This document shows, one piece after another, positions 10,202-48,402 of a stretch of DNA of 58,197 nucleotides (its first letter is position 1; the number at the start of each line of letters is the position of its first letter). This DNA is from Patescibacteria group bacterium (GTDB lineage Bacteria; Patescibacteriota; Patescibacteriia; UBA1558; GWA2-36-10), in contig JBAYIQ010000005.1 in NCBI GenBank assembly GCA_041665545.1, positions 1 through 58,197 of the forward strand, read 5' to 3'. The notes under the pieces were generated by a model. It ran no database searches, was not told the origin of the DNA, and was given only the letters and a program-made list of their open reading frames with translations. Both the position numbers and the translations under genes were made by a program.

Positions 10202-11329
10202 ATGCGGAAAATAGGCCAAAAGCGACTAATAGTGTACCCCTTTTTGTTGGGTGCGGCTTTTATGCTGGCTAGTGATTTGCCTTTGGCACGCATTAGCTAC
10301 CCCAATGCCGACAGGACAAACCCCTCAAGCTCTACTCCGGAAAAAATATTACATTTAAAAAAACCCGACTACGTGCGGGGAATTTATCTGACTGCCTCAT
10401 CAGCCGGTAATGACAGCTACCGCCAAAAACTTATTGTTAATTTAAAAAAGGGCTACATCAATAGCGTGGTAATTGATATCAAAGATTATTCTGGCTACAT
10501 ACTTTATGATACTCAAGTTGCTGAAGTAAATGAAATCCAAGGAAAAAAAATAAGAATGGACGTCGACCAAGTAATTGATGATTTCCATGAGGTTGGAATA
10601 TACACCATAGCTCGTCAGACTGTTTTCCAAGATCCGGTTTTGGCGGAGGCCAAACCTGAGCTGGCTATGCACACCAAGGCAGGAAATATCTGGCGTGATA
10701 ACAAAAATTTGGCCTGGCTTGACCCTGGCAATGAAAAAGTGTGGGAATATAATTTGGCTATATCCCGCGAAGCAATACTTTTGGGTTTTGATGAAATTAA
10801 TTTTGACTACATGCGCTATCCCAGTGACGGCCCTATGTCTAGTCTGGACTACAACTTGCCACCCGAAAAACAAAAATACGATGTCATGAAAAGTTTTTAC
10901 CAATACTTATCCAAAAATATTTCTGGTCTGACGCCAATTTCTGTAGACATGTTTGGCTTGGTCATGGACAATGTCAAAGATAATTATGATTTAAATATTG
11001 GCCAACGCTTGATTGATGCCTTAGATTATTTTGATGACATTGACCCCATGATGTATGCTTCGCATTACCCCAAAAATTATTTGGGCTATGAAAACTCGGC
11101 CGAGCATCCGGGTGAAGTAGTCGCCTATGGACTAAAGATCAGTCAGGCCACCACTACCAATCGTCGAGCCAAAATCAGGCCTTGGTTGCAGGCCTTTTCT
11201 ATTGGTGCTGTCTATGACCAAGAAAAAATAAAAGCGCAAATCAGGGCCACTGAAGCAGCTACCAGCACTTCTGGCTGGCTATTTTGGAATGCCCGCAATG
11301 TTTATGCGGATTATATGTTTGTAGAATAA
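10202..11329 (+). CDS. Putative glycoside-hydrolase-like TIM-barrel protein (DUF4015/GHL-like), secreted
   Basis: N-terminal signal-like segment. The family assignment is from memory of motifs (IRGIYLT...VVIDIKDYSG) and is tentative. Confidence 0.4.
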   Translation: MRKIGQKRLIVYPFLLGAAFMLASDLPLARISYPNADRTNPSSSTPEKILHLKKPDYVRGIYLTASSAGNDSYRQKLIVNLKKGYINSVVIDIKDYSGYILYDTQVAEVNEIQGKKIRMDVDQVIDDFHEVGIYTIARQTVFQDPVLAEAKPELAMHTKAGNIWRDNKNLAWLDPGNEKVWEYNLAISREAILLGFDEINFDYMRYPSDGPMSSLDYNLPPEKQKYDVMKSFYQYLSKNISGLTPISVDMFGLVMDNVKDNYDLNIGQRLIDALDYFDDIDPMMYASHYPKNYLGYENSAEHPGEVVAYGLKISQATTTNRRAKIRPWLQAFSIGAVYDQEKIKAQIRATEAATSTSGWLFWNARNVYADYMFVE

Positions 11330-11331
11330 AA

Positions 11332-12087
11332 TTAGTCGCCTATTTCAATACCCACTGGACAATGATCTGAGCCCAAAACCTCATTTAAAATAAACGCTTG
11401 CTTTATTTTTTTTATAATATTTTTTGAGACACAAAAATAATCAATGCGCCAACCCACATTTCTGACCCTAGCTCCAGCCCGATAGCTCCACCAAGAGTAC
11501 TGAATTTTATTAGGATGAAGCATACGATACGTATCTTTGAAACCAGAGAAAAAAAATTTATCCATCCACGCTCGCTCTTGAGGACTGAAGCCAGCACTAT
11601 GAATATTTTCTTTTGGCCGAGCCAAATCAATTTCCTGATGAGCCACATTAAAATCGCCACAAACTATTAGTGGTTTTTTTGTGGCTAATTTTTTTAAATA
11701 GGCCAACAACTTGTCATTCCATTTTATTTTCCAAGGCAGACGCCTCAAATCATCTTGAGCATTAGGAAAATAAATATTTACTAAATAATATTTGCCGATA
11801 TCCAAAACCAATATTCTACCCTCATCATCCCATGATAATTTTGGCAGGGCTCTGGCCACCAAACCATCTCTGACCAAAATTGCTGTGCCACTATATCCTG
11901 GCCTTTCCGCTGGATTCCAAAACTCTTGATAGCCCGCAAAATCAAACTGCTCTTTGTCTCTGGCGCTATGTGATATTTTTATTTCCTGCAAACACAAAAA
12001 ATCGCTTTGGGATTTTTTTAGAAAACTAATAAATCCTTTTTTAACAATTGCCCTAATACCATTTACATTAAACGATAAAATTCGCAT
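11332..12087 (-). CDS. xth: Exodeoxyribonuclease III / AP endonuclease
   Basis: MRILSFNVNGIRA N-terminus typical of ExoIII. Start moved to the internal ATG at 12087 (M13 of the listed ORF), which abuts the E1 inverted repeat. Confidence 0.85.
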   Translation of the reverse strand: MRILSFNVNGIRAIVKKGFISFLKKSQSDFLCLQEIKISHSARDKEQFDFAGYQEFWNPAERPGYSGTAILVRDGLVARALPKLSWDDEGRILVLDIGKYYLVNIYFPNAQDDLRRLPWKIKWNDKLLAYLKKLATKKPLIVCGDFNVAHQEIDLARPKENIHSAGFSPQERAWMDKFFFSGFKDTYRMLHPNKIQYSWWSYRAGARVRNVGWRIDYFCVSKNIIKKIKQAFILNEVLGSDHCPVGIEIGD

Positions 12088-12195
12088 CCCGTTAGAAATT
12101 CTCTTTACACTTTTTTCTGCCATAAAATTAAATATACCCTATTATTTTACTGATGATTATACGGCCTGCTAAAATAAATTTCTAACGGGACGCAT
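12085..12195. repeat. E1: ~110-bp element with 15-16-bp terminal inverted repeats (gcatcccgttagaaat ... atttctaacgggacgc); left arm overlaps the xth ATG
   Basis: Seen directly. Same architecture as E2-E4. Confidence 0.6.
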
Positions 12196-12428
12196 AAAAA
12201 TTATTTTACTTTTTGTTGTCGCACTGTCAAACTACGCCGAATTATAAAATTCGAGGGGGTGCGGTAAGCAGGCCGTCCTTTTCTATTGCCAACTTTATGG
12301 TGCTGTTTCATGTTATAATTATAGCACATCATTGAATAATGACTCTATTACAGTAGCCAAGCGGGTTAATGAGATAGTGGCATTGACTTTATGTAATATA
12401 TATTGTAAAATCATCTGTGTTTAATTGA

Positions 12429-13406: not shown

Positions 13407-13652
13407 ATGAAAAAATTTTTCTTTTATTTTGCCCGATGTAACGATAATACCCTTTATGCTGGTTACACAAATAATATAAAAAATAGAGAAATAAAACACA
13501 ACGACGGTAAGGGCGCAAAATACACTAAATGTAGATTACCAATAAAAATAATATACTGGGAGAAATTTGATACCAGGATTGAAGCCATGAAACGGGAAGC
13601 ACAAGTAAAACGTTGGAGTAAAATAAAAAAAGAAAAATTAATAAAAAATTAA
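13407..13652 (+). CDS. Small GIY-YIG nuclease-superfamily protein (81 aa, YhbQ/UPF0213-like)
   Basis: FYFARCNDNTLYAGYTNN...KHNDGKGAKYT and a C-terminal RE...KRW helix. The 5' extension of the listed ORF overlaps a tRNA and R2 and was trimmed to the ATG at 13407. Confidence 0.75.
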   Translation: MKKFFFYFARCNDNTLYAGYTNNIKNREIKHNDGKGAKYTKCRLPIKIIYWEKFDTRIEAMKREAQVKRWSKIKKEKLIKN

Positions 13653-13653
13653 A

Positions 13654-13715
13654 TTTTTTACGACGCGGGGTAGCCCGCCCGGCACGCCTACGGCGAAGCC
13701 GTGGCGGACGGGAGC
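13654..13715 (+). repeat. 20-nt duplicate of the tRNA-fMet 5' end plus upstream T-run (ttttttacgacgcggggtag), followed by a GC-rich motif leading into GIY-YIG #2
   Basis: Exact 20-nt match to 13987..14006. Motif cccgcccggcacgcctacggcg...gtggcggacgg is homologous to 12440..12478. Confidence 0.6.
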
Positions 13716-13730
13716 AGTACCACACTGAAT

Positions 13731-13985
13731 ATGCATATGAAAATATTACTTTTTTATACTTATGTCCTAAAAAGTAAAAAAGATAACAAATTGTATGTTG
13801 GATATACCGATAATCTAAACAAAAGAATCCAAAAACATAATGATGGAAAAGTTGAATCAACAAAAAATAGAAGACCATTTACATTATTATATTTTGAAGC
13901 TTGCCTAGATAAGTATAAAGCAATAAAAAGAGAAAAATATTTTAAAACGGGCTTTGGTAGGAGATTTTTAAAAAGTAGGATATAA
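13731..13985 (+). CDS. Small GIY-YIG nuclease-superfamily protein #2 (~84 aa)
   Basis: YTYVLKSKKDNKLYVGYTDNLNKRIQKHNDGK. About 45% identical to #1. The listed ORF starts at GTG 13701; ATG 13731 or 13737 is more plausible. Confidence 0.75.
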   Translation: MHMKILLFYTYVLKSKKDNKLYVGYTDNLNKRIQKHNDGKVESTKNRRPFTLLYFEACLDKYKAIKREKYFKTGFGRRFLKSRI

Positions 13986-13996
13986 TATTTTTTACG

Positions 13997-14073
13997 ACGC
14001 GGGGTAGAGCAGTTGGCAGCTCGCCAGGCCCATAACCTGGAGGTCGCCGGTTCGAGTCCGGCCCCCGCTACCA
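13997..14073 (+). tRNA. tRNA-Met (CAT), initiator-like, CCA encoded
   Basis: Unpaired C1xU72, A11:U24 and loop ccCAUaa. The anticodon stem has only two of the three canonical G:C pairs. Confidence 0.7.
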
Positions 14074-14117
14074 ATTTATACAATCCGAGGTAGCTCAGTG
14101 GTAGAGCAGTTGGCTGT

Positions 14118-14703
14118 ACATTTACATCGTGTATGTGGTATACTTATTGATGTATGCCAGATACAAGAAAATATGTCGATCGTGCTGAGTATTTAAAACA
14201 AGCAGTTGCTAAACGTCGTAAAGATGTGAAAATAATGCTTGTAAAATATAAGGGCGGTAAGTGTAAGACTTGTGGCTATAAAAAATCCGTAGAAGCTCTT
14301 GAGTTCCATCATATAAATGAAAGAAAAAAGAAGTTTGGAATTTCTGGGCAAGGATTAACTAGATCTTGGAAAAGTGTAAAGCAGGAAGCTGATAAATGCA
14401 TCTTGCTTTGCGCAAATTGCCACAGGGAATTGCACGCAAAATAGTGCAGCTTCCTCAAGTAATTGAGGTTGACAAACGGGGTGAACTGTCCCGCAAAACG
14501 GGAGCCCGCCAAAGGCGGTGCCGGGAAGCCTAAGTCTAAAAGATATGGTAATCCGCAGCCAAGCCCTGAACCAGATGGTTCAGGGAAGGTTCAGAGACTA
14601 TCCGAAAGGAGTAGGCAGTATTTACTAGCCGAAGCGCCCCGCATCCTAAAAAATTATAGGATGATGATATAGTCCATCCCTTTAGGAAACTTAAGGATCG
14701 ATG
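14118..14703 (+). mobile_element. Group I intron (IC3-like) in the tRNA anticodon loop, carrying an HNH ORF
   Basis: By eye, matches conserved group I segments of the Anabaena tRNA-Leu and Azoarcus tRNA-Ile introns as recalled (atatggtaatccgcagccaagccct, agagacta, gacaaacggggtgaa). The 5' exon ends in U and the intron ends in G. Confidence 0.65.
14154..14444 (+). CDS. HNH homing-endonuclease-like protein (96 aa), intron-encoded
   Basis: CKTCGY...EFHHINERKK...CANCHRELH: HNH motif with zinc-binding Cys pairs. Confidence 0.75.
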   Translation: MPDTRKYVDRAEYLKQAVAKRRKDVKIMLVKYKGGKCKTCGYKKSVEALEFHHINERKKKFGISGQGLTRSWKSVKQEADKCILLCANCHRELHAK

Positions 14704-14907
14704 TAACCAATTGGTCGTGGGTTCAAATCCCTCCCTCGGAGCCATTAAAAAAATATCAACTTCTGTTGGTATTTTTTTAATCTTGGCAACACCTCCTTTT
14801 AGTCGGAAAAATTATTTATTCATTCCAAATTTTATGCCGAAGCCAAATAAAAAACCATCCTGAGTGTAAGTCGAAGGATGATTTTTTATTTTTAGTCGAT
14901 AAGTAAT

Positions 14908-20031: not shown

Positions 20032-21818
20032 TAGCGCTGTAGTTTAGTTATTTCCTTATTTAATAAATTAATTTTATGGGTAATTTGGTCTTGAGTTATT
20101 GTGTCATTTTTTAGTTCGGCCTGACGCAATTGCTCAATCAAAAGCTGACGGCGCTCTTGGAATCTGTTGCTTTTCAATCTTTCCAGAGAAACATTGAAAT
20201 TGCTGTCTAGCTCCTGACCCGATAAATCAGCCATGTTTTGCTCAGCTGACATTAGTAGACGAATATACTGCTGTTTGGCCTCGACTTCCAGTTCGGGCCA
20301 ATCAATAAAATTATCTAAATTATGTTGCTTAGTATAATAGATTATTACCTTTCTGTAAAGATCTAGCAAGTCCGCTTCCATCATTTCTGGCTCCAGCTCA
20401 TTGACCAGGCGCTCCAGATAATTGTTTCGAAAAAATACAATTCCTAATAATTCTTCACTCAAAAAACTGACACTTGGTTTTTTGATGGCTATGACTTTCT
20501 TTTCGGGGCGAACATTTTCCAAGAAACTGCTGACTTGCTTGAGATCACTTTGCAAAATATCTAAAGGCAAATGCAACTTGTCAGCCAATAATTGCAAATA
20601 ATGAGATTGTTCAACCGCGCTTTTTAAATATTTTATAATCGGTAATAATTTTTGCACGGCTATTTTTTTGTGATCAGCCCGATTCAAGTCCACACCAGAT
20701 AAAATTCGCTGAAAATAATAATCCATCACTTGTATAGAATCACGCACCAATTTCAGCCATAAATTTTTATCGCTCTTTACTATGTCAGCTGGATCTTGAT
20801 TTTGTGGCAAGACCAAAATTTTCATATTCATTTCTTGAGCCCAGGCCAAAGTAATACTGCGCAAAGCGGCATTGGAGCCAGCTGTGTCACCATCAAAAGC
20901 CAAAATAACATTGTTGGTATAGCGCTTGATCAACTTCAAGTGATCAATGGTTAAAGCTGTGCCAGAAACTGCCACGGTATTAGTAGTGCCAGCTTGCTGA
21001 CTCAAAATCGCGTCAAGATTGCCTTCCACAATAATCAAATAATTTTTTTGCTTGATGGTGGCTTTGGCCAAGTGCCAACCATACAGTATTTTGCTTTTGT
21101 CATAAATATTGGTTTGCGGACTATTGATATACTTGCCACCAAAATCTTCGTCATGATAAACAATACCCTGCAAAGTGCGCGAAGTAAAAGCCACCACTCG
21201 CCCAGCTGTATCAAATATTGGAAACATCAGTCGCTTGCGAAAGCGATCCACGTAGCCACTGCCATCTTTTTTCTTTACTGAAATGCCAGCTTGAAAAATA
21301 TCGGTATCCGAAAATTTCTTGGCTTTCAAATACTGCAGAGCTTCATCCCAAGACTCGGTACTTAAGCCCAGACCCCATTTTTTTATACTGTCCGTAGTCA
21401 AACCCCGAGACAAAAGATAGTCCAAAACTTTGGCGCTGGTTTCATTTTTATCAAAAAGATTGCTCTGATATTTTTCCGCAATCAAATGATTTATTTCAAA
21501 CAAAAGATTAAAATTTTCCTTGGGTAATGATTGATAGCCAGCCAAAGAAACATTGGCTTTCTCGGCCAACAGCTTGATGGCTTCCGAAAAACTCAAACCC
21601 TCATATTCTTGAATAAAAGTAAAAATATCTCCGCCCTTGCCACAGCCAAAACAATGCCAAATTTGCTTTTCCCGAGAAACCATAAAACTGGCGGTCTTTT
21701 CATTATGAAAGGGACAACGCGCTTTGAGGTTGGAGCCAGTCGAATTCAAGGTGATATATGTGGAGATAATGTCGGCTACATCCAACTTGGCTTTTATTTC
21801 TTCAACCGGGTTCTGCAT
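20031..21818 (-). CDS. dnaG: DNA primase DnaG
   Basis: Zinc-binding [11 protein letters not shown]...[10 protein letters not shown]. Toprim region EGNLDAIL...FDGDTAG. Confidence 0.9.
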
Positions 21819-21928
21819 CCCGTTAGAAATTTAAATAATTAAACATATAACTAAAAAAATAAAATTTATCAATAAACCCATTATTTTTTCCACTAAACCT
21901 AGTTTAATGAATTTCTAACGGGATGCAT
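21816..21928. repeat. E2: ~113-bp element with terminal inverted repeats (catcccgttagaaattt ... aatttctaacgggatgcat); left arm overlaps the dnaG ATG, right arm abuts the GC-rich island
   Basis: Shares the 23-nt extension gttagaaatttaaataattaaac with E3. Confidence 0.65.
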
Positions 21929-21962
21929 AAGCTTATATTAGGTGAAATACGATTTTTAGTCA

Positions 21963-21995
21963 AAAAGAAAGGCGCTCGAGAGGGGTTTCTCGAGC
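21963..21995 (-). terminator. Terminator hairpin (11-bp stem ggcgctcgaga/tctcgagcgcc) with T-run on the minus strand
   Basis: Lies directly downstream of island ORF 22028..22444. Confidence 0.55.
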
Positions 21996-22027
21996 GCCGT
22001 GGATTGTTGTCGGCTACTGGCCCGCGC

Positions 22028-22444
22028 CTAGGCGTGGACCTGGTAGACCGAATTGCCCCGAGCCGACTTCCAGCTGTCCGCCGATCCGTCGCGGACCAGC
22101 GCTTCGAGGTTGGACCTCACCAACTGGAACAGAAAGAAGTTCCGCTTCTCCCACCGATAGAGGCGCCGCATGACCATGCCAGCGGTCATGGGATGCCTCG
22201 CCCTCTGCATGAGCACGAGCACGCGCTCGCTCATGGGCTGATCGACCATGATCGGCGTGAACTTGACCTCGATGGCCACACCGTCCAGTTCTCCGACGGC
22301 GAGGATCGACGCCGGACGACGATCGCGCGCCCTGCGGATGAACCTCTCGGCCACGGGGAAGACCTTCCCAGCGAAGATCGCGGGCACAGTGATCGAAAGC
22401 ATGATGATGGCGATGATGAGCACGAAAATCTCGATCGGATTCAT
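22028..22444 (-). CDS. Membrane-anchored hypothetical protein (138 aa) in the GC-rich island
   Basis: GGAGG lies 5 nt before ATG. N-terminal TM helix IEIFVLIIAIIMLSITVPAIFAG followed by an Arg-rich soluble domain. The overlapping plus-strand ORF 21923..22534 was rejected. Confidence 0.55.
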   Translation of the reverse strand: MNPIEIFVLIIAIIMLSITVPAIFAGKVFPVAERFIRRARDRRPASILAVGELDGVAIEVKFTPIMVDQPMSERVLVLMQRARHPMTAGMVMRRLYRWEKRNFFLFQLVRSNLEALVRDGSADSWKSARGNSVYQVHA

Positions 22445-22596
22445 GACGCCTCCAATGGCTTGGGACCAGGAACAGTGACCTATATCACATTCATTGGCCT
22501 TTTATGGCCAAAATGCTTCGAAATTAATGCTTGATGAACTGTAAAACAGTATATCATAGCACAAAAAATAAAAGTTGTCAAGCCACGGTTAAAAAT

Positions 22597-22627
22597 AACC
22601 TTCGAGGTTGCCATAACCTCGAAGGTT
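22597..22627. promoter_or_regulatory. Perfect 13-bp inverted repeat AACCTTCGAGGTT-N5-AACCTCGAAGGTT between divergent island genes
   Basis: Seen directly. It lies ~55 nt upstream of a TTGACA-N16-TAGTAT promoter-like sequence at 22684..22711. Confidence 0.45.
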
Positions 22628-22869
22628 GGCCGTGTCTACTAGTATTGCACTGATTTGTTGAACCCACGCTACAAACACTTGACAAAATATTATTATTATG
22701 ATAGTATAAAATGTTTTGACCAAATAGCAAAAAATTGAGCTTTTGGTTAAACCAAAAGTTCTTTGAAATGTCATACATCACTCGTAAAAACAACTAATAA
22801 GATCGAGTTTTCTGTCCACAAATCCTATGGCCACAGTGTCAGTGCAACCACGTAACGAAAGGAGTTTCG

Positions 22870-23460
22870 ATGGAACACCAGCAGACCTTCTGGCACATGC
22901 TGGGGAACGACGTGGGGATGATGACGTTCGCCGTTCTGGGCTTCATTGGCGGAGTGTTCACTTTGATCACTCTGGCCTTCGGCCACGGCGACCACAACAT
23001 CGACCACGACTTCAGCGCGGGCGACCACGACTTCAGCGCGGGCGACCACGACAACAACGCCGGCCCGAACGTGTTCTCGTTCCGCAACATCATGCTCTTC
23101 GTCACCGGCTTCGGTGGAATCGGCATGCTGGCCAAGTACCATGGCGCAAGCTTCATTGTGAGCAGCCTCTGGGGCGCTTTCTCTGGCTTCATCATGGCAT
23201 TCGTCGGCTACCTGATCTACCGCGCCCTGTACAAGAGCCAGGCGACCTCGCACATCGACAACTGTTCGCTGTGCGGTTCGATCGCTCTGGTCGAACAGGC
23301 CATCGTCGCTAACGGCATGGGTATCATCGTGGCCGGAGGCGAGATTGGCCACCTCGTTCGCCTCCAAGCCAGAACGAAGGAAGGAACCCCGGTCGCAAAC
23401 GGCCGACAGGTCCGCATCCTGAATATCAACGGGACCGAAGCTCTGGTCGAGGCCCTCTAA
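22870..23460 (+). CDS. NfeD-like membrane protein (YqiJ-type: TM region + C-terminal OB-fold)
   Basis: AAGGAG RBS. Hydrophobic N-terminal half with HD repeats. C-terminal domain VANGMGIIVAGGEIGHLVRLQ...GRQVRILNINGTEALV. Lies immediately upstream of an SPFH protein. Confidence 0.7.
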   Translation: MEHQQTFWHMLGNDVGMMTFAVLGFIGGVFTLITLAFGHGDHNIDHDFSAGDHDFSAGDHDNNAGPNVFSFRNIMLFVTGFGGIGMLAKYHGASFIVSSLWGAFSGFIMAFVGYLIYRALYKSQATSHIDNCSLCGSIALVEQAIVANGMGIIVAGGEIGHLVRLQARTKEGTPVANGRQVRILNINGTEALVEAL

Positions 23461-23503
23461 TCCCTGCTCCAACACACCACCGTCTTCCCAAAGGAGTATC
23501 AAG

Positions 23504-25228
23504 ATGGAACAGTCCGCACACTTCATGCAGTACCTGATCCCCGCGATCATCCTGTTCGTGCTGATCGCCTTTCTGGGTGTGATCCGCCTGGCGGCCAAGA
23601 ACTACATCAAGGTGGCCCCGAACGAGGTGGCCATCATCAGCGGCAGCCGTCACAAGACGACGGTCACGCTGCCCGGCAAGGAGAACGAGCCCCCCACTAC
23701 GGTGGTGCGCGGATACAAGCTGGTCACCGGTGGCGCCTTCTTCAAGGTGCCGATCCGCGATCGGGTCGAGATCATGAAGCTCAATCTGATCCAGATCATT
23801 GTCCAGGTCACCAACGTGCCCGCCCTCAACGGCGTGCGCGTGACGGTCAAGGGCATCGCCAACATCAAGATCCTCTCCGACCAGGCCTCCCTGGCTCTGG
23901 CCGTGGAGCGCTTCCTGGGGAACAACCTCAGCGAAGTGGAACGTGTGGCCAATCAGAACCTGGAGTCCAACCTCCGCGCCGTCGTCGGCACGATGACGGT
24001 CGAGGATCTGATCCGGGACCGGGCACAGCTCCAGGCCCAGATCCTCCGGGAAGCGGTCAGCGACATGTCCAAGATGGGTCTCGGTGTGGACCTGATGAAC
24101 GTCCAGGAGATCACGGACGAGAACGGGTACATCGAGGCCCTGGGCATGGCGCGAACCGCCGAGGTCAAGCGCGACGCAACCATCGGCAAAGCCGAGGCCC
24201 AGCGTGACGCCGACATCCGTTCCGCGGAAGCCGGACGGCTGGGCGAGACGGCCAAGGCCGTGGCTGCACAAGCCATCTCGGATGCGCAGAAGGCCAAGGA
24301 TATCCGCGTTGCCGAGAACGAGAGTCTGGTCAAGGCACAGCAGGCCAGGATCCCGATCATTGCGGAGCAGGCTCGAGCCGAGGAACAGAAGGCGCTCAAC
24401 ATCAAGACCGTCGAGGCCGATCGTGCCAAGACCGAAGCCGAGATCGCCCTGCAGCAAGCGGCTCAGCGCCGGCACGAGGCCGAGCTGAACGCAACTACGA
24501 TCATTCGGGCCACGAAGGACAAGGAGGCCCTAGTCATCGCTGCCGAGGCCAAGGCCCTGGCGGCGGAACGGGAAGGCGAAGCCTACCGCATCCAGCACGA
24601 GATGGAAGGCAAAGGTGACCAGGCCAAGCTGACTGCTGTGGCTCAGGGACGCAAGGAAGCGGCGGCGGCTACCCAGACCGAACTGGAAGCCGCGGCTGCC
24701 GGTAAGAAGGCCGGACTGCTGGCTGACGCCGAGGGTGTCAAGCAGAACGGTCTGGCCAGGGCTGCCGGAGTCGAAGCCGTTGGTGTGGCTGAGGCCACGG
24801 CTTCGGCCAAGAAGGCTGAGGCTTACACCCTGCTTGATGCCAAGGGCATCATGCTCATGCTGCTCCAGCTGTCGCCGGACGTCATCAAGGCGCTCGGCGT
24901 GGCTGTCGGCGACGCCATCAAGCCGTCGGCAGATGCCATCGGACAGGGCCTGGGTAACATCAAGGAACTGCGCATGGTGGATCTGGGTGGCGGTTCGGCT
25001 GGCGGGGCTGGCGGGGGCAATGTCCTCAATCAGTTCGTCAACCAGCCCATCCAGACCTTGTATGGCCTGATCGAACGGATGAAGGCCACGGGCATGGCAC
25101 CGGCGTTCATGAAGCTGGCCAAGGAGAAGCTCGGGCTGGATCTCACGGACGTCTTCGCTGGTGCTCCTACCCAGACGACGTCGGACGACACGCACAAGAA
25201 GGGTGGTGATGACACGGCTACGGCTTAG
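23504..25228 (+). CDS. Flotillin-like SPFH/band-7 protein (YqiK-like) with Ala/Glu-rich coiled-coil
   Basis: N-terminal TM helix, SPFH core (KVPIRDRVEIMKLNLIQI...LMNVQEITDENGYIEALG) and an extended EA-rich repeat region. Confidence 0.85.
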   Translation: MEQSAHFMQYLIPAIILFVLIAFLGVIRLAAKNYIKVAPNEVAIISGSRHKTTVTLPGKENEPPTTVVRGYKLVTGGAFFKVPIRDRVEIMKLNLIQIIVQVTNVPALNGVRVTVKGIANIKILSDQASLALAVERFLGNNLSEVERVANQNLESNLRAVVGTMTVEDLIRDRAQLQAQILREAVSDMSKMGLGVDLMNVQEITDENGYIEALGMARTAEVKRDATIGKAEAQRDADIRSAEAGRLGETAKAVAAQAISDAQKAKDIRVAENESLVKAQQARIPIIAEQARAEEQKALNIKTVEADRAKTEAEIALQQAAQRRHEAELNATTIIRATKDKEALVIAAEAKALAAEREGEAYRIQHEMEGKGDQAKLTAVAQGRKEAAAATQTELEAAAAGKKAGLLADAEGVKQNGLARAAGVEAVGVAEATASAKKAEAYTLLDAKGIMLMLLQLSPDVIKALGVAVGDAIKPSADAIGQGLGNIKELRMVDLGGGSAGGAGGGNVLNQFVNQPIQTLYGLIERMKATGMAPAFMKLAKEKLGLDLTDVFAGAPTQTTSDDTHKKGGDDTATA

Positions 25229-25320
25229 TAGAACTGACTGTCTCTGACGGTCTGAACTCTGAGCCAAAGCTTTCATAGAGGGGAGGCGGTGCTACACAGC
25301 ACCGCCTCCCACTCCAAAAC

Positions 25321-25359
25321 AAGAGGGATCTTTCGTAACCCCTCTTTTTTTATTTTTTA
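25321..25359 (+). terminator. Rho-independent terminator after the flotillin gene
   Basis: Stem aagaggg/ccctctt followed by tttttatttttt. A separate 13-bp-stem hairpin at 25281..25310 has no T-run. Confidence 0.6.
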
Positions 25360-25405
25360 ACCAAAATAAAAAGGGTACTCCCTAATTACACTGTCAACAC
25401 AAAAA

Positions 25406-30313: not shown

Positions 30314-33300
30314 CTATTTTAGTTCTTCAGCATATTCAGCAAACACCCAGCCAACTTTATTTTCAGTTAAAGCTATTTGATACCAGCCAAATTTTTCTAA
30401 ACCCTGAGCCGCCACTTGACTAAGCAAGTCGTATTTTTCTCCGGCACTTACTTTGGCCACAACGGCTGTTTCTTTGGAAGCTTCCTGCCTGACATTGAGC
30501 CAACCAGTTGGTGTATCTTTAATAATAACTTGTTTCTTCATTAAAATATCTTCCGTAGCGGGTACTGTGCTACTAGAAGTGGAACTGGCACTTTCTGAAC
30601 CAAAACTAAAAGCCATATTATTATCAGCTAAAACAGGAATATTATCAAGCTTATTGACGTCAGTTTCAGAGGCGACGGTCACATTGTTGGCTGACCTAAG
30701 TTCGTCAGTCTTAATATATTTTGATAAATTTTGTCTAATATTAGCCAAAATACCATATTTATCAACTAACAAATACAAAACTATAAAAATCAAAACAAAA
30801 GTAATAAGCCAGACTTTATTTTGTCTGATATTTTTGAACAAGCGAGTAAAAAATTGCTTAATATAGATTAAAAAACTTGTCGATACTTTGGCCTTTGCTT
30901 CGACGCTAGCTATATTGGCTGGACTATTTTTGCTAACTGCTGCTTTCTTCTTTTTTCTGCGCCCACCAGAGGAATTCATTTTTTCCATATCAAGCGGCTT
31001 GCCAGTCAAAATATGCGACTGCAAGGCCATCTGACCATTGGCTATGGCTACTTGATGCTTCCACATGGAGAACAAGATGGTCACTAACAAACCAAAGCCG
31101 GTGACAAAAGCAATAATGATCCCCCACACCGAAATGGTCTGTATACCACCCAAGGCTCCCAAAAATCCGCGAGAGGCATCAGCTTGGCTCAATAGTGACT
31201 TCAATTCATCCAATTCTGTCTGCACACTAATAAAACTTTCTTTATTTTCTCGATAAGTCATAATTTTATCTTGCGGGGAGGCAGTATTTTCTTTTTGAGT
31301 ACGCAGAATTTTTTCTACTTTGCTATCAATATCATTTTTGAGTAATAAAGCTTGAGAAGAAAGTTGATTTTTTTCTAATTTCTTATAAAAATCATTGGCC
31401 TGCGTCTTGGCTATAGTCAAATCATTTTCAGCAATCTGCCAAATATCTCGCATTTTAATAAATTTTTTGACCGAAGCACCCGGAGCCAATTCAATCTCGC
31501 CAGCCGCATACAAAGTATCTAGCTGAACATCGTACTGAATATTGAAACCGCCATCATCCATAATGTGCTCTACTTTAGCTTCCTTTGGAAGATAAATCTT
31601 GAATGGCACTTTTTGAGCAGTCTTGGCTGGATTGGAAAGCATGATGTTCAAATCCACTGAACCAGAGGTGTACCAAGTGCTGACTATCGGAGCCGTGGCC
31701 TGCTGAACCACTTGACGCTGAACAGTGGTGACGGCTTTGTAGTCGGCTAATTTATTACGCACATATTTTATATCCGTCATATTCTCCTGCGAGATGGACA
31801 GTATTGAACTCAAAGTATCGCTATCCAGACGGCCCAGTTTGGTATTGATGTTCTGAATGGAGTTGGAGATGGTACCCATGGCTGTGAACATCTCCTCGGG
31901 CTTCACATTGTAAACATTGGTATTGTTGGTGGTACTACTGCCGGAGCCAACTTCAATATTATCAATACTTGTTTCTAGAGTAGCGATGCTAGCTTCAATA
32001 TTATCTAGTTGAGTTTTGATTAAAGCAATATCTGCCTTGATCAAAGTCACGTCGTCCTTGATGCCAGCCACATCGGACTGGATGGTGCTGATCTTAGTCA
32101 CTGGTACGGCTAATGTTTTTAAAATAGTAAAAGCGTCACTGCTAGCTGGCGCAAAGGGAAGATCTGGTTCTACTGTAATGGCTTTGGTTGTACCATTATA
32201 ATCATCTATTCTTCTGGCTACACCACTGTTTTGGCCAGAAGTAAAAGTCAGCAGTGCGTGAGCATATAAATCATTGACAGCGCTGGTAAGATTTGTGCCA
32301 AATAAAGAAATTGTCGGGCTAACTTCGGCTGTAGAAACAGCGGAGCGAATGGCAATCAAATCATTGGACAACAAATCAACTGAGTTACTCACCGCGTCTA
32401 TACTATTACCCAGTGTCGTTTCAGTGGACTGCAAATCAGATAATGTGGCTAGCGACCCACTGTCTAAATCCGCTCCTGATAAATAACGACCACTGTAGGC
32501 CCAAATAGAAGCCGCGTCCAAAGTAGCAGTATTTGAAGTCTGGGCCAAAATAGTAAAGGTGTCAGCATTGGCAGGAGCCAGAGCCAAAGCAGGATCGACC
32601 GTGATCGCCTTGGTGGTGCCATTGTAGCCCATAATCCTTCTCGCCTGACCAATATTTAAACCCGAGGTGAACAATAAGATATTATTTTTATAAAAATCAT
32701 TAGTGGCATTAGTCAAGGCAGTAGCAAATACTGTGGTTGATGGCGCCAAATCATTCACTGAAGTTTCCGAAACAATCAAGGCATTGATAATTTTATCTAG
32801 CTTAGTGCTGTTGACGCTAATAGCACTAGCCAAAACTGTTTCCGTATCTTGAATATCTGACAAAGTAGCTAAAGAACCAGAGTCTAAAGTGGCACCTGAT
32901 AAATACCTGTCGCCATAGGTCCAGATAGCGGCCGCATCAACTGCCGAGTTGGCTGTCTGCGCTAAAATAGTAAAGGTATCGGCATTAACCGGAGCTAAAG
33001 ATAAAGCTGGCGAAACAGTAACCTGTTTGCTAGCCCCGACATAATCGGTAATACGACGCGCTTGACCAGCGTTGACGCCAGAAGTAAAAACCAAGACACC
33101 GTTGTTATAAAAATCATTACTGTTGCTGGTCAAAGTTGTAATAAATTGATTATCTGAAGCGCCGGCATCATTGACCACTTTTTGTTCCACTATTAAATTA
33201 TTAATCAGCGTATTTAATTGTCCGCTCAAAGTACTTTCGGTAGATTGTATATTTGACAAAGTGGCTAAAGATCCGGAGTCTAAAGCGGCGCCTGACAAAT

Positions 33301-36300
33301 AGCGACCATCGTAGGCCCAAATAGCGGCTGCATCAAGTGAGGCATTGGCGGTTGAGGCCAAAATAGTAAAAGTATCACTGCTAGATGGAGCAACCGACAG
33401 AGCCGGAGTAATAGTCAATTTTTTGGTAGCGCCAACATAATTGCTAATGCGTCTAACCTGACCAGCATTGGATCCAGAGGTAAATACCAAAACACCGTCA
33501 TTATAAAAATCATCATTGGCATTGGTCAGGGTGGTAATAAATTCTGTGGTTGAGGGACTTGGGTCATCAACGGCTTTTTGGGCGACCAATAAATTATTTA
33601 TCAAATTGCTTAAACTATTGGCAACCGCTGTCACCTCAGCTGATGAAGCGCGAGAAGAAATAGTAGTATCAATATTGGTTTTTAATAAAGAGCCAATGCT
33701 ATTGATAGTCGTGATTGAGGTCAAAAGTGTATCCCAAACTCGTTGTGCCGTCAGATCGCCAGATGTTAGGGTGCGAGTTTCATAAGTCCAAATTTCAAGA
33801 GCTAAAGCGGCTAAACCATCATTCTCAATACTAGTAATTGTCCTGGTGCCCTCACTCCAAACATCTGATGCCGTCAAATTACTAGTGCCACGAGAAGAAA
33901 TAGTAGCATTCAAATTATCAACTATCAGTTTGCCAATAGAACCACCCGTAGAAAGCAAAGCTGATGCTATATTCCAGACTTGAGCTGGATCAGATAAGGT
34001 GACTCCACCACTCAAACTGCGGCCACCAGCTGACCAGACATCAGCCGCTGAAATATTATTTAAGGCCTGTATGTCAGCCAAAGTAGCCAAGGAGCCACTA
34101 TTCAAAGTAGCGTCAGTCAAACGACGAACATTGTACTCCCATATTTCTTGGGCAGTCGCCCCGCCACCGCCAGTAGCGCTAGAATAATAACTTAAAATAA
34201 TAAATTCATCATTGAAAGCTGGCGCATAAGGCATGGCCGCATCCACCGTAATTGCTTTGGTGGCGCCATTGTAGCTAGAAATTCTACGGGCAATACCAGC
34301 ATTCTGGCCACTCATCATAACCACCATTTGATTTTGATAAAAATTAGAAGTGGCTTGTGTCATGTCTGTCACAAAGACAGTGGCTGAAGCGGCCACATCA
34401 TTGACCAAGCCCCGCTTGATGGCCAAGCGATCATTTAAAAGTTGCCCAAAAGATCCATCAATATCAGCAAATGACCCCACTTGTGCTCCCCAAATACTAG
34501 TAGCCGTCAAGCCAGTTGACAACCACGGCACCACTGGTTGACCAGAAGAATGAAAATCCAAAGTACCAGTATCTACTGTACCCGATAAAACAGCCATATC
34601 ATCTATGTACACCGATGGCTGTCTAAAAATAATATAATCACCCATCGTGGCATTGGTCAGAGTGGTACTTAAAAGATGTGGCACTACTCCACTACCCTTC
34701 AAATACAATAACTGGGCAGTATTTTTTACAATATCAAATATCTTACCATTAGCGTCTTTAAATTTATAGCCGACCCATTGATTGGTGGTCCAACTTTTAT
34801 CAACATCCTCAACAATGATTGGCAAATAATTACCCAAGGAATCATCGATAATTTCACTGGTGCCAGAATCAGCGGCCACAAAAGCTGACTGCACGGAAAA
34901 TTTTATATCGGCAATAGCTGACTCTGTAGGCGTACCAGACACCACAAACTGTTGCCAATCATTAGCCGTGTCTTGTGCTGTCCAAGTAAGGTTGGCACCA
35001 GTCATACCCAGACCAGATAAGGTAACTGTCGGTAAATTAGTAGACCCATAATAACTATTGATATTCATATAGCCCGTAATGGCTAGTGGCTGGTTAGCCA
35101 CACCAATGACTTTGGCTGTATATTCAAGTGGCGCATCAGGATTCAGCGAATCCAGACGCCACGCATAACCACTAGCTGTGTGAGCAGTGGAATCATTGAG
35201 ACCTAACCCGGAAGTTCGCATATTACCAAAAGTGGTAAAATTAACTATGTCTTTAGTCGAGCTAGAATAATTGCCGCGAATATCAGCTCCGGGGATAGTC
35301 AGACCATAAAAATGTTCTGGTATCCTAGACATATTATTATAATCGGCCATGCCAAACAAAACCGGACTTAATAATTGAGTATTAGAGCCGGTAAATTGCA
35401 TCAATGATTCTGCTTCAAAAGTAGTGGTATTAGCTGGTATACTAATATCTGCCTCATTCCAAGAACCACGACCAAAAATACTACCACTATCCATAATACC
35501 CACATTGGCCGTGGTTTGGGCCACGCTGATTCCTGCGCCATATCCAGCTTGATTTAAGGTGACAGTATCCGAGACCGAGCCATCAAAAACATTATCAGAC
35601 ATCGTGAGGAAAGAATTACCATTGAGCCGTATACCAAAATTATTTACTGAAAAAATATTGTTAGCGATAGTCATTTTGGCTACGCCACTATTTAAATTAA
35701 CTGCTCCGCTAGTAATACCCGTCACACCATTATTATAAAACTGGCTATTAGCAATAGTGTACAAACGTCCAGACACAAAAGAAGCCGCACCATTAGCCGA
35801 GGTCAAAGCCGCATTAGTGTTGCGACATCCCATAAATATACTGCCATCAATGCCAACGTTTTGTGAAGCTGTAGCATTATAACCAGTGCCTAAAGTAGTG
35901 GCGCCAAAGTTGGTGGTCACAAAATATGCTCCCACAGTATTAGTGCCTTGAGTTTTGGCTGATACCGTATAAGCACGATCATAATAATTATAAAATACTG
36001 ACTTACTGACTGTCTGTGTTGGTTTGACCAATGTGGAAGTATAAGGATTGTTCATTATAGAAAAATTACTATACTGATTCTCAGTAGAAAGATGACTAAC
36101 GTTCAGATTCGCTAAACCTGACAAACCCACAGCTACTGTACCAAAAGCATTGCCCATGTGTATGGGCGTGGCCACTGTGGCACCGGTAGCATTTATTTCC
36201 TCATCCGACCACATGTGTATACTACGCTTGAGATTCAACACTGGCGAATTGTAAGGAGCTGAAGTAGAGTCCCGCTTGGCCTTGTGATGGAAAGTAAAAT

Positions 36301-45605: not shown

Positions 45606-46079
45606 TTAATCATCTTCTTCCTCATCATCATTGCCAACCACATTAGTATTTTGATTTGTGTTAGCTGGTGGTATGGCCACCGCATCTGTAGAAACAGTTG
45701 ATCCGATTATACCGATCTTGTAACTAGCCAAAATATTGCTAGCATTAGCCGAATGACCCTGAGTAGCAAAGGCAGCGGCAATATCGCCTCCGCAATATTT
45801 AATAATGTTTGATTGCCCACCGGGATGTGATTTTATATATGATGTCACATTATAGACATTATTGCCAGCTGTCACCCAGCAGTCAGAAGCCATATTGTGT
45901 TGGGTTACTATAGCAGTAGTTAGAGTATATGTCACTGGCGCGATATTGGCAGGATTGTTGGTTAATAAATTTCCTAGGTTGGTTAAACTTCCATTATTTT
46001 GTCTTACTAAACTATTAACAAAAAAAATGCTGACTGCTCCCCAAAAGATAAATACCGCTATAATTATTATTTTATTCAT
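45606..46079 (-). CDS. Secreted cytochrome b5-like heme-binding domain protein with acidic C-terminal tail
   Basis: DCWVTAGNNVYNVTSYIKSHPGG...GGDIAAAF (HPGG motif). Signal peptide. C-terminus DDEEEDD. Confidence 0.6.
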   Translation of the reverse strand: MNKIIIIAVFIFWGAVSIFFVNSLVRQNNGSLTNLGNLLTNNPANIAPVTYTLTTAIVTQHNMASDCWVTAGNNVYNVTSYIKSHPGGQSNIIKYCGGDIAAAFATQGHSANASNILASYKIGIIGSTVSTDAVAIPPANTNQNTNVVGNDDEEEDD

Positions 46080-46186
46080 CCGGTTAGAAATTTAAATAAT
46101 TAAACTTTTTATAACTAAAGTAAAATTTTGCTAAATAATTTTTATACATATTTCTAAATATTATCCCGTGAATTTCTAACGGGATG
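46077..46186. repeat. E3: ~110-bp inverted-repeat element (catccggttagaaattt ... aatttctaacgggatg); left arm overlaps the ATG of the cytochrome-b5-like gene
   Basis: Homologous to E2 beyond the inverted repeats. Confidence 0.65.
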
Positions 46187-46196
46187 AATATATTTA

Positions 46197-48260: not shown

Positions 48261-48402
48261 ATTTTACCCCGTTAAATAATTTTTATCGGGTCCAGCTCGA
48301 TAAAAATTAAATTTAATTAATAATAATTAAAAAATTGAATTGTTATAATTATTTTTTTGGTTTATTTTTATGCCCCAATAAATTAAATTTATTTAACGGG
48401 GT
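48258..48402. repeat. E4: divergent member of the E family (accccgttaaataatt ... aatttatttaacggggt), between the cca stop and the mscL ATG
   Basis: 13-14-bp inverted repeats about 105 bp apart. The arm sequence is related to the E1-E3 arm cccgttagaaat. Confidence 0.45.

Follow-up and report, generated by a model that had tools for sequence, protein, structure and literature searches.

The window analysed here is the whole of a 58,197-nucleotide contig from a Patescibacteria group bacterium (JBAYIQ010000005.1), and our subject is a set of four short inverted-repeat elements within it, E1 to E4, which adjoin an xth-like gene, dnaG, a cytochrome-b5-like gene and mscL, respectively, all on the minus strand. 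Judged by assembled sequence and structure prediction, on which the whole analysis is based, E1–E4 are miniature transposable elements with inverted repeats (MITEs) of a widespread family of miniature mobile elements with start-codon insertion. The best explanation, which we regard as very probable, is that they are MITEs of very small DNA transposons whose full-length members, ∼270 bp in length, encode a GIY-YIG nuclease that would serve as the mobilising enzyme. An earlier note on this DNA had considered a MITE-like element, a mobile promoter cassette or an operator pair for a looping regulator. The first of these is borne out by terminal inverted repeats (TIRs), 4-bp target duplications, exact empty sites, hundreds of copies and a coding partner with the same ends.

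All four inverted pairs described in that note are present where it had placed them (Table 1). The 12-mer CCGTTAGAAATT occurs exactly five times in the window, against 0.02 occurrences expected from shuffles, and a sixth copy, the left arm of E3, carries one mismatch (CCGG); together the six make up three head-to-head pairs with 62–78 nt between the extended arms, and no solo arms were found in the window. The copy number is three plus one variant, E4, in 58 kb. The elements are 104–135 bp long, are bounded by 13–14-bp ends (YCCCGTTAGAAAT) and have AT-rich interiors that contain short upstream open reading frames (uORFs) only and no complete open reading frame (ORF). E2 and E3 have gttagaaatttaaataattaaac and an ataactaaa block in common, and are homologous copies rather than convergent palindromes, as had been proposed.

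In E1–E3 the minus-strand start codon, CAT, overlaps the end of the element, so that the ATG takes its first base from the element's terminal T (A on the coding strand): the rebuilt xth ATG (12087–12085, minus strand) has its A at base 12087 and the rebuilt dnaG ATG at base 21818. The proposal that the arm doubles as part of the initiation region is in this sense literally true, the arm's last base being the first base of the start codon. The fusion of arm and start codon that had been claimed for all four copies therefore holds for E1–E3 but not for E4, the variant arm of which (CCCCGTTAAATAATTT) stops 7 nt short of the mscL ATG (48260–48258). E4 lies between mscL and the stop of a CCA-adding/poly(A) polymerase gene, with flanks TTTA and TTAA, and its AAATA-type arms were found again in other genomes (L186, L200, L228). 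On the far side of E1, the distal duplication and base 12195 preserve the old start as ATGCG on the minus strand, and this kept ATG opens an 8-codon uORF; in E2 the distal duplication and base 21928 form a kept old ATG that opens a 9-codon uORF (MHPVRNSLN*). E3, with one mismatch in its proximal arm (TCCGG) and an interior akin to that of E2, has inverted rather than direct flanks, a minority class (18/237 of the copies listed below), and as a result its old upstream ATG is gone and its palindrome is longer (30 nt, 83%).

Gene callers misplace starts at such sites. The longest xth ORF begins within E1 (12123), 12 codons upstream of the rebuilt ATG, and a 263-aa xth call opens inside E1 both here (11332–12123, minus strand) and in the relative L244 (16778–17569), which extends the protein by 12 residues that the element encodes (MAEKSVKRISNG). 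Of the two candidates for the original xth start, the ATG rebuilt at the end of E1 is more likely than the in-element ATG.

Table 1. Positions of the window elements, the neighbouring host promoters and the nuclease-encoding elements of other loci (window coordinates unless a locus is named)
Feature	Position	Strand	Details
E1, 104-bp non-autonomous element at xth start	12087..12190	-	ends TCCCGTTAGAAATT 12087-12100; AATTTCTAACGGGA 12177-12190
E1 inverted pair	12084-12107 / 12170-12193		
E1 target-site duplication, gene-proximal	12083..12086		CGCA on +, TGCG coding; identical to 12191-12194
E1 target-site duplication, distal	12191..12194		CGCA
xth promoter, sigma-70-like	12203..12230	-	TTGACA-16-TAAAAT; 11/12 matches
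E2, 106-bp element in dnaG start codon	21818..21923	-	ends TCCCGTTAGAAATT 21818-21831; AATTTCTAACGGGA 21910-21923
E2 inverted pair	21811-21831 / 21910-21930		
E2 target-site duplication, gene-proximal	21814..21817		TGCA; relatives' empty site A/TGCA/G
E2 target-site duplication, distal	21924..21927		TGCA
Original dnaG-rpoD promoter	21935..21963	-	TTGACT-17-TAATAT; kept in element-less relatives
E3, 106-bp element in start codon of cytochrome-b5-like gene	46079..46184	-	
E3 inverted pair	46063-46092 / 46171-46200		
E3 proximal flank	46075..46078		TTCA (TGAA coding, part of ATGAAT)
E3 distal flank	46185..46188		TGAA on + (TTCA coding)
E4, 135-bp variant-subfamily element	48267..48401	-	ends CCCCGTTAAATAA / TTATTTAACGGGG
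E4 inverted pair	48263-48286 / 48382-48405		
TIR-bounded nuclease element, L019	982-1262		duplication TTCG
TIR-bounded nuclease element, L116	3148-3422		duplication TGAA; arms CCCGTTAGAGAT / ATCTCTAACGGG
TIR-bounded nuclease element, L255			duplication TGAA; host VWA gene rebuilt as A+TGAA, nuclease stop overlaps as ATGA
TIR-bounded nuclease element, L260			duplication TGAA; rebuilt host start is GTG, old ATGAAC kept

We compared these sites with those of relatives, ranked for dnaG by DnaG identity (L257, 96%; L258, 88%; L243, 87%; L244, 83%; L245, 62%) and for E3 and E4 by ferric reductase identity (L261, 85%; L262, 69%). The dnaG gene of all five relatives lacks an element and has TTGACT-17-TAATAT (or TAAGAT), then 6–8 nt, then the ATG, the ORF starting ATGCA in L257, L258, L243 and L244 and ATGATG in L245; judging by this promoter-to-ATG spacing, dnaG is probably leaderless or nearly so. 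The empty dnaG site of L257 reads ...TAATATAAGCTTATGCAGAACCC (exact empty allele AAGCTTATGCAGAACCC) and the filled site of the window ...TAATATAAGCTTA-TGCA-[T CCCGTTAGAAATT ... AATTTCTAACGGG A]-TGCA-GAACCC. E2 thus offers filled and empty alleles of textbook form, with 4 bp of the target duplicated. For E3, L261 supplies the empty site ...TATATATGAATAAAATAATAATT; in both L261 and L262 the ferric reductase stop is followed by TAAAAAATATAT-ATGAATAAAATAATAATT with no element, the genes being 6 nt apart in L262, which places E3 in A/TGAA of a start codon, here within an operon. Presence/absence at orthologous starts, the comparison that the earlier note had recommended, therefore came out in favour of mobility, E2 and E3 both being empty in relatives.

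E1 has a decayed copy (TCCAGTTAGAAATTT) at the same position in L244 and is not present in L245 (62% DnaG identity), whereas L262 carries E4, the interior of which is well conserved. By this comparison the copies differ in age: E2 and E3 are recent insertions into essential or housekeeping genes, insertions that close relatives do without, and E1 and E4 are older and common to relatives, E4 being counted as old because it is kept in a relative of 69% identity. E4 was probably exapted as the mscL 5′ region, and E1 is perhaps an old copy that has turned into part of its host gene's 5′ region. Within E4, an interior hairpin (48277–48309) aligns with positions 1075–1110 of L262 and its pairing has been kept through two-sided changes, the stems reading TTTTTATCG...CGATAAAAA against TCGAGC...GCTCGA; a TATAAT-like box is also conserved. 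E4 may have become an mscL regulatory region.

A repeat family shared by many phyla

A paired-arm pattern search matched at least 120 metagenome stretches and at least 120 stretches from GTDB species genomes. The family statistics that follow are based on 237 non-redundant copies among the matches listed, a sample rather than a census, the loci around which amount to 1.72 Mb with ∼8 kb or less on each copy; taxon labels of genome stretches are the titles of metagenome-assembled genome (MAG) records. The YCCCGTTAGAAAT ends occur at more than 240 loci, in many phyla of the candidate phyla radiation (CPR)/Patescibacteria (Saccharibacteria, Nomura-, Moran-, Doudna-, Kerfeld-, Jorgensen- and Campbellbacteria, Kazan and others) and elsewhere (Deltaproteobacteria/Syntrophaceae, Planctomycetes/Phycisphaerae, Omnitrophota, Nitrospirae and others).

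Each element consists of 13–14-bp inverted repeats, YCCCGTTAGAAAT ... ATTTCTAACGGGR, around a lineage-variable interior. The nucleotides that border CCCG and GGG on their outer sides complement each other in 231/237 copies, so the inverted repeat reads YCCCGTTAGAAAT, and element boundaries were refined by including this complementary terminal base. Inverted complementarity ends sharply past the 12–13-mer, and arm variants co-vary inside one element (119/122). Across the 1.72 Mb, 546 arms were paired and 56 solo, with a decayed partner beside most of the solo arms. The 4-bp flanks are identical direct repeats in 141/237 copies, and at their central dinucleotide 154 copies are direct and 18 inverted. 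The tetranucleotide that becomes duplicated is TNNA, foremost TGAA/TTCA, then TAAA/TTTA and TTGA/TCAA, and the target consensus is the degenerate palindrome R-T-N-N-A-Y.

Interiors are unrelated between lineages and form small subfamilies only; they may be AT-rich, GC-rich and repetitive, or whole tRNA genes. A GC-rich, internally repetitive interior (AATGCCCCGCTGC...GCAGCGGGG...) defines a subfamily in MAGs labelled Deltaproteobacteria/Syntrophaceae, with several copies per MAG (loci L129, L135, L141, L146, L162, L177, L181, L182, L184, L189, L192, L210, L223, L226, L235 and others) and TAAA flanks in constant orientation relative to the interior. When a 19-copy subfamily was oriented by its interior, the flanks were TAAA/TAAA in 12 copies and TTTA/TTTA in none.

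At positions 3570–5100 of L018 (Ga0210049_1017225) lies a nest of tRNA gene halves. Several tRNA 5′ halves break off at the anticodon loop, each with a left arm (CCCGTTAGAAAT or CCCGTTAGACAT) after it; downstream come complete tRNA-Ala and tRNA-Pro genes between arm pairs, and then right arms with the matching tRNA 3′ halves, the arm variants agreeing (GACAT with ATGTC). The arrangement suggests that tRNA-carrying elements inserted repeatedly into the anticodon loops of tRNA genes and were then rearranged. A tRNA also lies between arms in L217 (2852–2960). The halves in L018 raised the idea of a bulge-helix-bulge intron, which we rejected on inspection: a second bulge has no place in the unbroken 14-bp stem, and direct-repeat flanks and DNA-level empty sites contradict it as well. 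Integron attC sites, with GTTRRRY/RYYYAAC-like cores, were likewise rejected, as the polarity here is the opposite (5′-GTTAGAA ... TTCTAAC-3′), targets are duplicated and no integrase recurs.

Identical inverted sites 60–95 bp apart before several unrelated genes could alternatively be operators for a DNA-looping regulator, or, since inverted repeats around an AT-rich segment are the anatomy of an inverton, the boundaries of promoter segments flipped by a recombinase. We consider either hardly credible. The sites are polymorphic insertions with target-site duplications that are missing at orthologous positions of close relatives, and the same sites occur in many phyla beside arbitrary and varied, often housekeeping, genes; the looping-regulator proposal was abandoned on these grounds. 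Moreover, the window has been assembled twice independently (JGI 3300037810 Ga0376277_0002854; ENA ERZ27249449 k141_1089640) and the two assemblies are identical over E2, with the interior in the same orientation at the assembly level, and no recombinase, integrase or regulator gene recurs near the copies across 240 loci.

Scans of IMG/VR with short and long versions of the element returned 0 matches, and no phage vector was seen. Full-text literature searches, the arm sequence included, found no description of such an element, and it seems that a repeat of this kind, in CPR/Patescibacteria and further bacteria of groundwater and sediment, has so far gone undescribed.

Start codons, host promoters and a possible leader RNA

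The start-codon position seen in the window recurs throughout the family. An outward ORF (at least 60 codons; ATG, GTG or TTG) starts exactly at the terminal base in 101/198 copies (104/396 sides), whereas any other offset from -9 to +9 accounts for 0–6 sides. In 63 of the 98 gene-adjacent copies the opposite flank is ATGAAT, ATGAAC, ATGAGT, ATGCGT or ATGGAT, indicating that the old start codon is kept upstream of the element. Across the same 98 copies a TANNNT hexamer peak ends 7–8 nt before the old ATG, which is the layout of a leaderless promoter, and inside the elements there is no gene-directed -10-like peak relative to the opposite-strand control; hence the elements generally bring no promoter and are transcribed from that of the host. 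The window conforms to this pattern. The xth promoter lies upstream of the whole of E1 and ends 7 nt ahead of the kept old ATG (A at 12195), which identifies it as the pre-insertion, leaderless xth promoter, and the dnaG-rpoD promoter stands in a leaderless arrangement 6 nt upstream of the old ATG.

These observations bear on the proposal that the elements are mobile promoter cassettes, with an AT-rich interior driving the adjacent gene through an outward promoter. TAGAAA-17-TATAAT does lie inside E1, a TATAAT-like box is conserved in the interior of E4, a strong terminator stands directly ahead of E2, and the TTGATA-N16-TTATAT stretch that had been pointed out in E2 can be seen by eye. The last of these, however, fails a promoter scan, for want of an A at the second position of the -10 hexamer, and the same scan finds a better promoter just beyond the distal arm. 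Since the sigma-70-like promoters of E1 and E2 lie outside the elements, 6–7 nt upstream of the old ATG, with that of E2 also kept in element-less relatives, since the 98 gene-adjacent copies show no internal -10 peak, and since a tRNA gene, GC-rich repeats or a nuclease ORF may take up the interior, we dropped the promoter-cassette proposal as a general account and think it very unlikely.

With the host promoters placed upstream of the distal arm, transcription should run through the entire element, the arms of which could pair in the mRNA. The predicted closing stems are strong: -34.2 kcal/mol for E1 (z -4.5), -38.8 for E2 (z -6.7), -26.8 for E3 (z -4.3) and -31.2 for E4 (z -3.4). The elements might accordingly be cis-regulatory RNA leaders that hide the start codon, with control by a uORF, RNase III-type processing, temperature or a binding protein. 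The uORF frame from the kept ATG is open through the interior in 20/69 copies, against 55/345 in other frames (p = 0.016), and the uORF often ends at an ATGA overlap (11 copies) or at the arm's TAA (7 copies). This openness hints at selection for coupling in some copies; reading of the element in frame as an N-terminal extension is found in just 2/69 copies and was rejected as a general explanation. The interior of E4, with its hairpin, is also kept in the relative of 69% identity. On the other hand, E2 and E3 are recent and close relatives function without them, interiors are unrelated between lineages, Rfam 15 gives no match at E1–E4 either at the gathering score or at E ≤ 5, and what is conserved is a DNA-level TIR with a target duplication. 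We consider regulatory leaders rather unlikely; the reading is nevertheless compatible with a mobile origin, to which it would add a secondary function, most plausibly for E4.

The GIY-YIG coding partner and a possible route of transposition

Elements of ∼270 bp with the same ends encode a single protein, a GIY-YIG nuclease of 86–87 aa. Four such elements have intact boundaries (Table 1), and two further nuclease members, in L246 and L259, have decayed flanks. The ORF begins a few bases inside the left end and continues through the right end (…SLTG); in L116 the nuclease stop is the TGA of the duplication. A homologue search (E ≤ 1e-5) returned 5730 proteins. Among the best 120 of these, to which the following details refer, sequences are ∼80% identical to the query and nearly all exactly 86 aa long; the arm-encoded xLTG motif is present in 116, of which 98 stop right after it, running straight into a T[AG][AG] stop; and 13 start with MNPVR(D/N), which is what ATGAAY-CCCGTTAGAGAT encodes. 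An arm-encoded MNPVRD extension opens many of the nuclease's database entries, a further case of starts misplaced by gene callers. Source names include Planctomycetes, Giovannonibacteria, Terrybacteria, Scalinduaceae and Omnitrophota, and, as far as such names can be taken at face value, the spread of the nuclease across phyla equals that of the short elements.

PF01541 was assigned to all the nuclease matches among the best listed, and Y5, Y16, G18, R26, H30 and E50, residues of GIY-YIG catalytic type, are invariant. The only PDB sequence match is 1ZG2, the UPF0213 protein BH0048, and there is a weak match to TIGR01453. A structural model with a predicted local distance difference test (pLDDT) score of 92 has as its closest folds UPF0213 BH0048 (1ZG2), Slx1 and HIGLE, followed by I-TevI and UvrC.

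The link between coding and non-coding members is seen most directly in L066, where a 115-bp copy (10793–10907) still has the opening ∼25 codons of the nuclease ORF together with the final ∼25 nt; from its sequence this copy is evidently a direct internal-deletion derivative of a nuclease element. A longer coding element (L019, L116, L255, L260) and a deletion derivative (L066) are thus both in hand, and the ends that E1–E4 share with them, together with the L066 copy, identify E1–E4 as non-autonomous derivatives. L066 is the single clear case of a nuclease ORF remnant in a MITE interior, most interiors being unrelated.

The preferred target of the elements is TGNA after the A of a start codon, above all A/TGAA. 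On insertion the old ATG is left upstream and the last base of the element (A or G) combines with the duplicated TG into a new ATG or GTG ahead of the intact ORF, and it is because this terminal base rebuilds the start codon that one arm looks fused to it. From these features a mechanism can be proposed that resembles the action of a restriction enzyme, in which the nuclease would make 4-nt staggered cuts at R^TNNA-Y sites. The terminal Y and R of the element re-create the R-TNNA-Y context on both sides, giving a junction, TNNA-YCCCGTTAGAGAT, that the nuclease could cut; cleavage of both duplications would produce 4-nt overhangs by which donor and element fit each other, and host ligation or repair would reseal the donor and join the element to a target whose tetranucleotide matches. 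A full-length element would borrow the promoter and initiation signals of its host gene, or use its own ATG, and because the nuclease stop overlaps the rebuilt host start (RTGA) ribosomes would be handed back by translational coupling. For the short copies of the window, the host gene would be transcribed from its old promoter through the element, the 18–21-bp closing stem of which must be melted or processed for translation. Such a route predicts that excision is seamless, with ATTTCTAACGGGATGCATCCCGTTAGAAAT as the excision junction, that the duplication is locked in orientation and that there is a circular intermediate, whose junction would be a perfect palindrome, ATTTCTAACGGGR-TNNA-YCCCGTTAGAAAT.

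Some of the data speak to this mechanism. The target consensus, R-TNNA-Y, is a degenerate palindrome and in this fits cut-and-rejoin. The TAAA/TAAA orientation lock would follow from a tetranucleotide that moves along with the element or has to match the target, and is not expected of a DDE reaction, which is symmetric. The orientation bias of the nuclease ORF (98/116) fits cut-and-rejoin, although selection for a compact ORF could also explain it, and identical junctions would alternatively arise if a break made by the nuclease were repaired on a microhomology template. Taken to its conclusion, the proposal would make the family a new autonomous class of DNA transposon, perhaps the smallest known (∼270 bp), in which an Slx1-like GIY-YIG nuclease cuts R^TNNA-Y and host ligase joins, and which, adapted to start codons, where it takes over promoter and initiation signals that are often leaderless, has spread recently between CPR and unrelated co-resident phyla and given rise to thousands of MITE derivatives. 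We advance this stronger claim tentatively, as something possible rather than probable.

A more conventional account would make the elements MITEs of a DDE insertion sequence family with 4-bp duplications (IS1380/piggyBac-like, IS5-like or IS701-like), with the transposase encoded elsewhere and the GIY-YIG gene a passenger or a colonising homing-endonuclease gene. TIRs accompanied by a duplicated 4-bp target are the hallmark of DDE elements, unrelated cargo in the form of tRNA genes is carried between the ends, and TIR-less GIY-YIG genes are common and seemingly mobile themselves in these genomes; piggyBac ends (CCCTAGAAAG..., with a TTAA duplication) we also take to be similar. Against this, we found no TIR pair enclosing more than ∼260 nt, up to several kb, in the 1.72 Mb around more than 240 copies, apart from the nuclease elements of ∼250 nt, and no DDE transposase between the same ends within ∼8 kb or less of each copy. 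All-against-all clustering of 2471 ORFs from 240 loci gave only housekeeping families, in at most 14 loci each, and no transposase. Furthermore, the last four codons of the nuclease are the right TIR in 116 of the best 120 homologues and its stop lies in the duplication, the nuclease is spread across phyla like the MITEs at ∼80% identity, and the duplication is orientation-locked in one subfamily. We therefore consider a DDE origin unlikely. Classification among GIY-YIG homing endonuclease genes was rejected too: the catalytic core is there, whereas the extra DNA-binding domain and TIR-less homing of such genes are not.

Several points weigh against the view that E1–E4 are MITEs of a nuclease-encoding transposon. 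The window has no TIR-bounded nuclease gene, its own two GIY-YIG ORFs lacking such ends, and the nuclease could, as far as sequence goes, be a passenger, as the tRNA genes between the same ends in L018 and L217 clearly are. GIY-YIG enzymes are hydrolytic nucleases, and we know of none that transposes DNA alone. Perfect direct duplications are lacking in 40% of the listed copies, and some copies, E3 included, have inverted flanks, of which the simple model predicts none. The dnaG, xth and cytochrome-b5-like starts are buried in an 18–21-bp stem with no Shine–Dalgarno sequence. Finally, because the phylum labels are MAG titles, binning errors could inflate the taxonomic breadth.

The two GIY-YIG ORFs of the window (13407–13652 and 13740–13985, plus strand) lie in the tRNA cluster beside E1 and share 31% and 56% identity with P0126, a TIR-bounded nuclease. 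A 20-mer from the 5′ end of a tRNA-Met gene (TTTTTTACGACGCGGGGTAG) is repeated at 13656–13675 and 13986–14005, and it looks as if the second ORF was inserted with partial duplication of the tRNA gene. Relatives likewise have GIY-YIG ORFs between tRNA genes. GIY-YIG genes have been listed among those passed from Patescibacteria to other bacteria (PMC12455944).

Neighbouring features, known systems and significance

Between a DUF5671 gene and dnaG, the window contains a GC-rich island (21960–25400; 54–56% G+C against 32–40% around it) that carries a 574-aa Band_7/SPFH gene (23504–25228, plus strand) and ends in a strong terminator (21971–21998) running into the dnaG -35 box. It is missing in L257, L258, L243 and L244, where the DUF5671 gene or a small methyltransferase gene precedes dnaG, and L245 has a different small GC-rich ORF at this spot; the island looks like recently acquired foreign DNA. 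In an apparent tRNA gene starting near 14077 (window 14077–14750) there is a group I intron (RF00028, 81 bits) at 14473–14696, preceded within the interruption by a 96-aa ORF (14154–14444) that ends in ...LLCANCHRELHAK, HNH-like by eye; ARAGORN makes no call of this tRNA. The cytochrome-b5-like gene beside E3 (45606–46079, minus strand) encodes 157 aa with one Cyt-b5 domain, whereas its orthologues in relatives encode 265–283 aa with two Cyt-b5-like repeats; as the window gene keeps the N-terminal signal/anchor and the second repeat, it has suffered an internal deletion. A single 4143-aa ORF occupies 30314–42745 (minus strand), with a G+C content of 42–46%, above its surroundings.

Among known repeats, the family resembles Correia/NEMIS (Neisseria), RUP, ERIC and MITEAba12 in being ∼100–150 bp long and non-coding, with TIRs, a short duplication and many copies, and in lying near genes with which it is co-transcribed, forming hairpins with its ends and showing presence/absence polymorphism. 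Unlike MITEs of the Correia/NEMIS type, it duplicates a 4-bp TNNA rather than TA, inserts precisely in a start codon that its terminal base rebuilds, and has ends that are identical across phyla around unrelated interiors, the only coding partner of those ends being a GIY-YIG nuclease and not a DDE transposase. Resemblance to piggyBac/IS1380 presumably extends to a 4-bp T...A duplication, ends with CCC and then a TAGAAA-like stretch, and seamless excision, which for the present family is a prediction; here, however, no DDE gene was found, the TNNA centre is variable rather than TTAA, the elements are 100–270 bp long and the enzyme has the GIY-YIG fold. With GIY-YIG homing endonucleases such as I-TevI and Seg the nuclease shares a small selfish ORF, horizontal spread and a position between or beside conserved genes. 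Those enzymes, though, have a separate DNA-binding domain, are copied by recombination into the cognate empty allele and come without TIRs, duplications or MITEs, whereas the present protein is a bare catalytic core of 86 aa with TIRs and duplications at many unrelated loci.

The best sequence match of the nuclease is in the UPF0213 family (YhbQ, BH0048), and its best fold matches are BH0048, Slx1 and HIGLE. Slx1 and HIGLE are structure-specific nucleases with branched or hairpin DNA as substrate, forms that an element with inverted repeats can take up; they and UPF0213 differ from the present nuclease in being host repair enzymes, Slx1 requiring Slx4, and to our knowledge no member of these groups has been described inside a repeat-bounded mobile unit. 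The overlap of the nuclease stop TGA with the rebuilt host ATG or GTG is like the AUGA/GUGA translational coupling of operons, except that here it is made at insertion by the terminal base and the duplicated target.

The presence or absence of individual copies provides a fine-scale strain marker in uncultured lineages, E2 separating strains at 96% DnaG identity. If the association of nuclease and repeats holds, a common repeat of CPR genomes gains an explanation, and an enzyme of 86 aa acting on 14-bp ends would make for easy biochemistry and may have value as a tool. The elements would then be nearly harmless selfish DNA, inserting in a start codon, rebuilding it and coupling their translation to that of the host gene. 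If the proposed mechanism is true, they would represent a nuclease-only route of transposition, set apart from those of the DDE, HUH, serine, tyrosine and Cas1 type.

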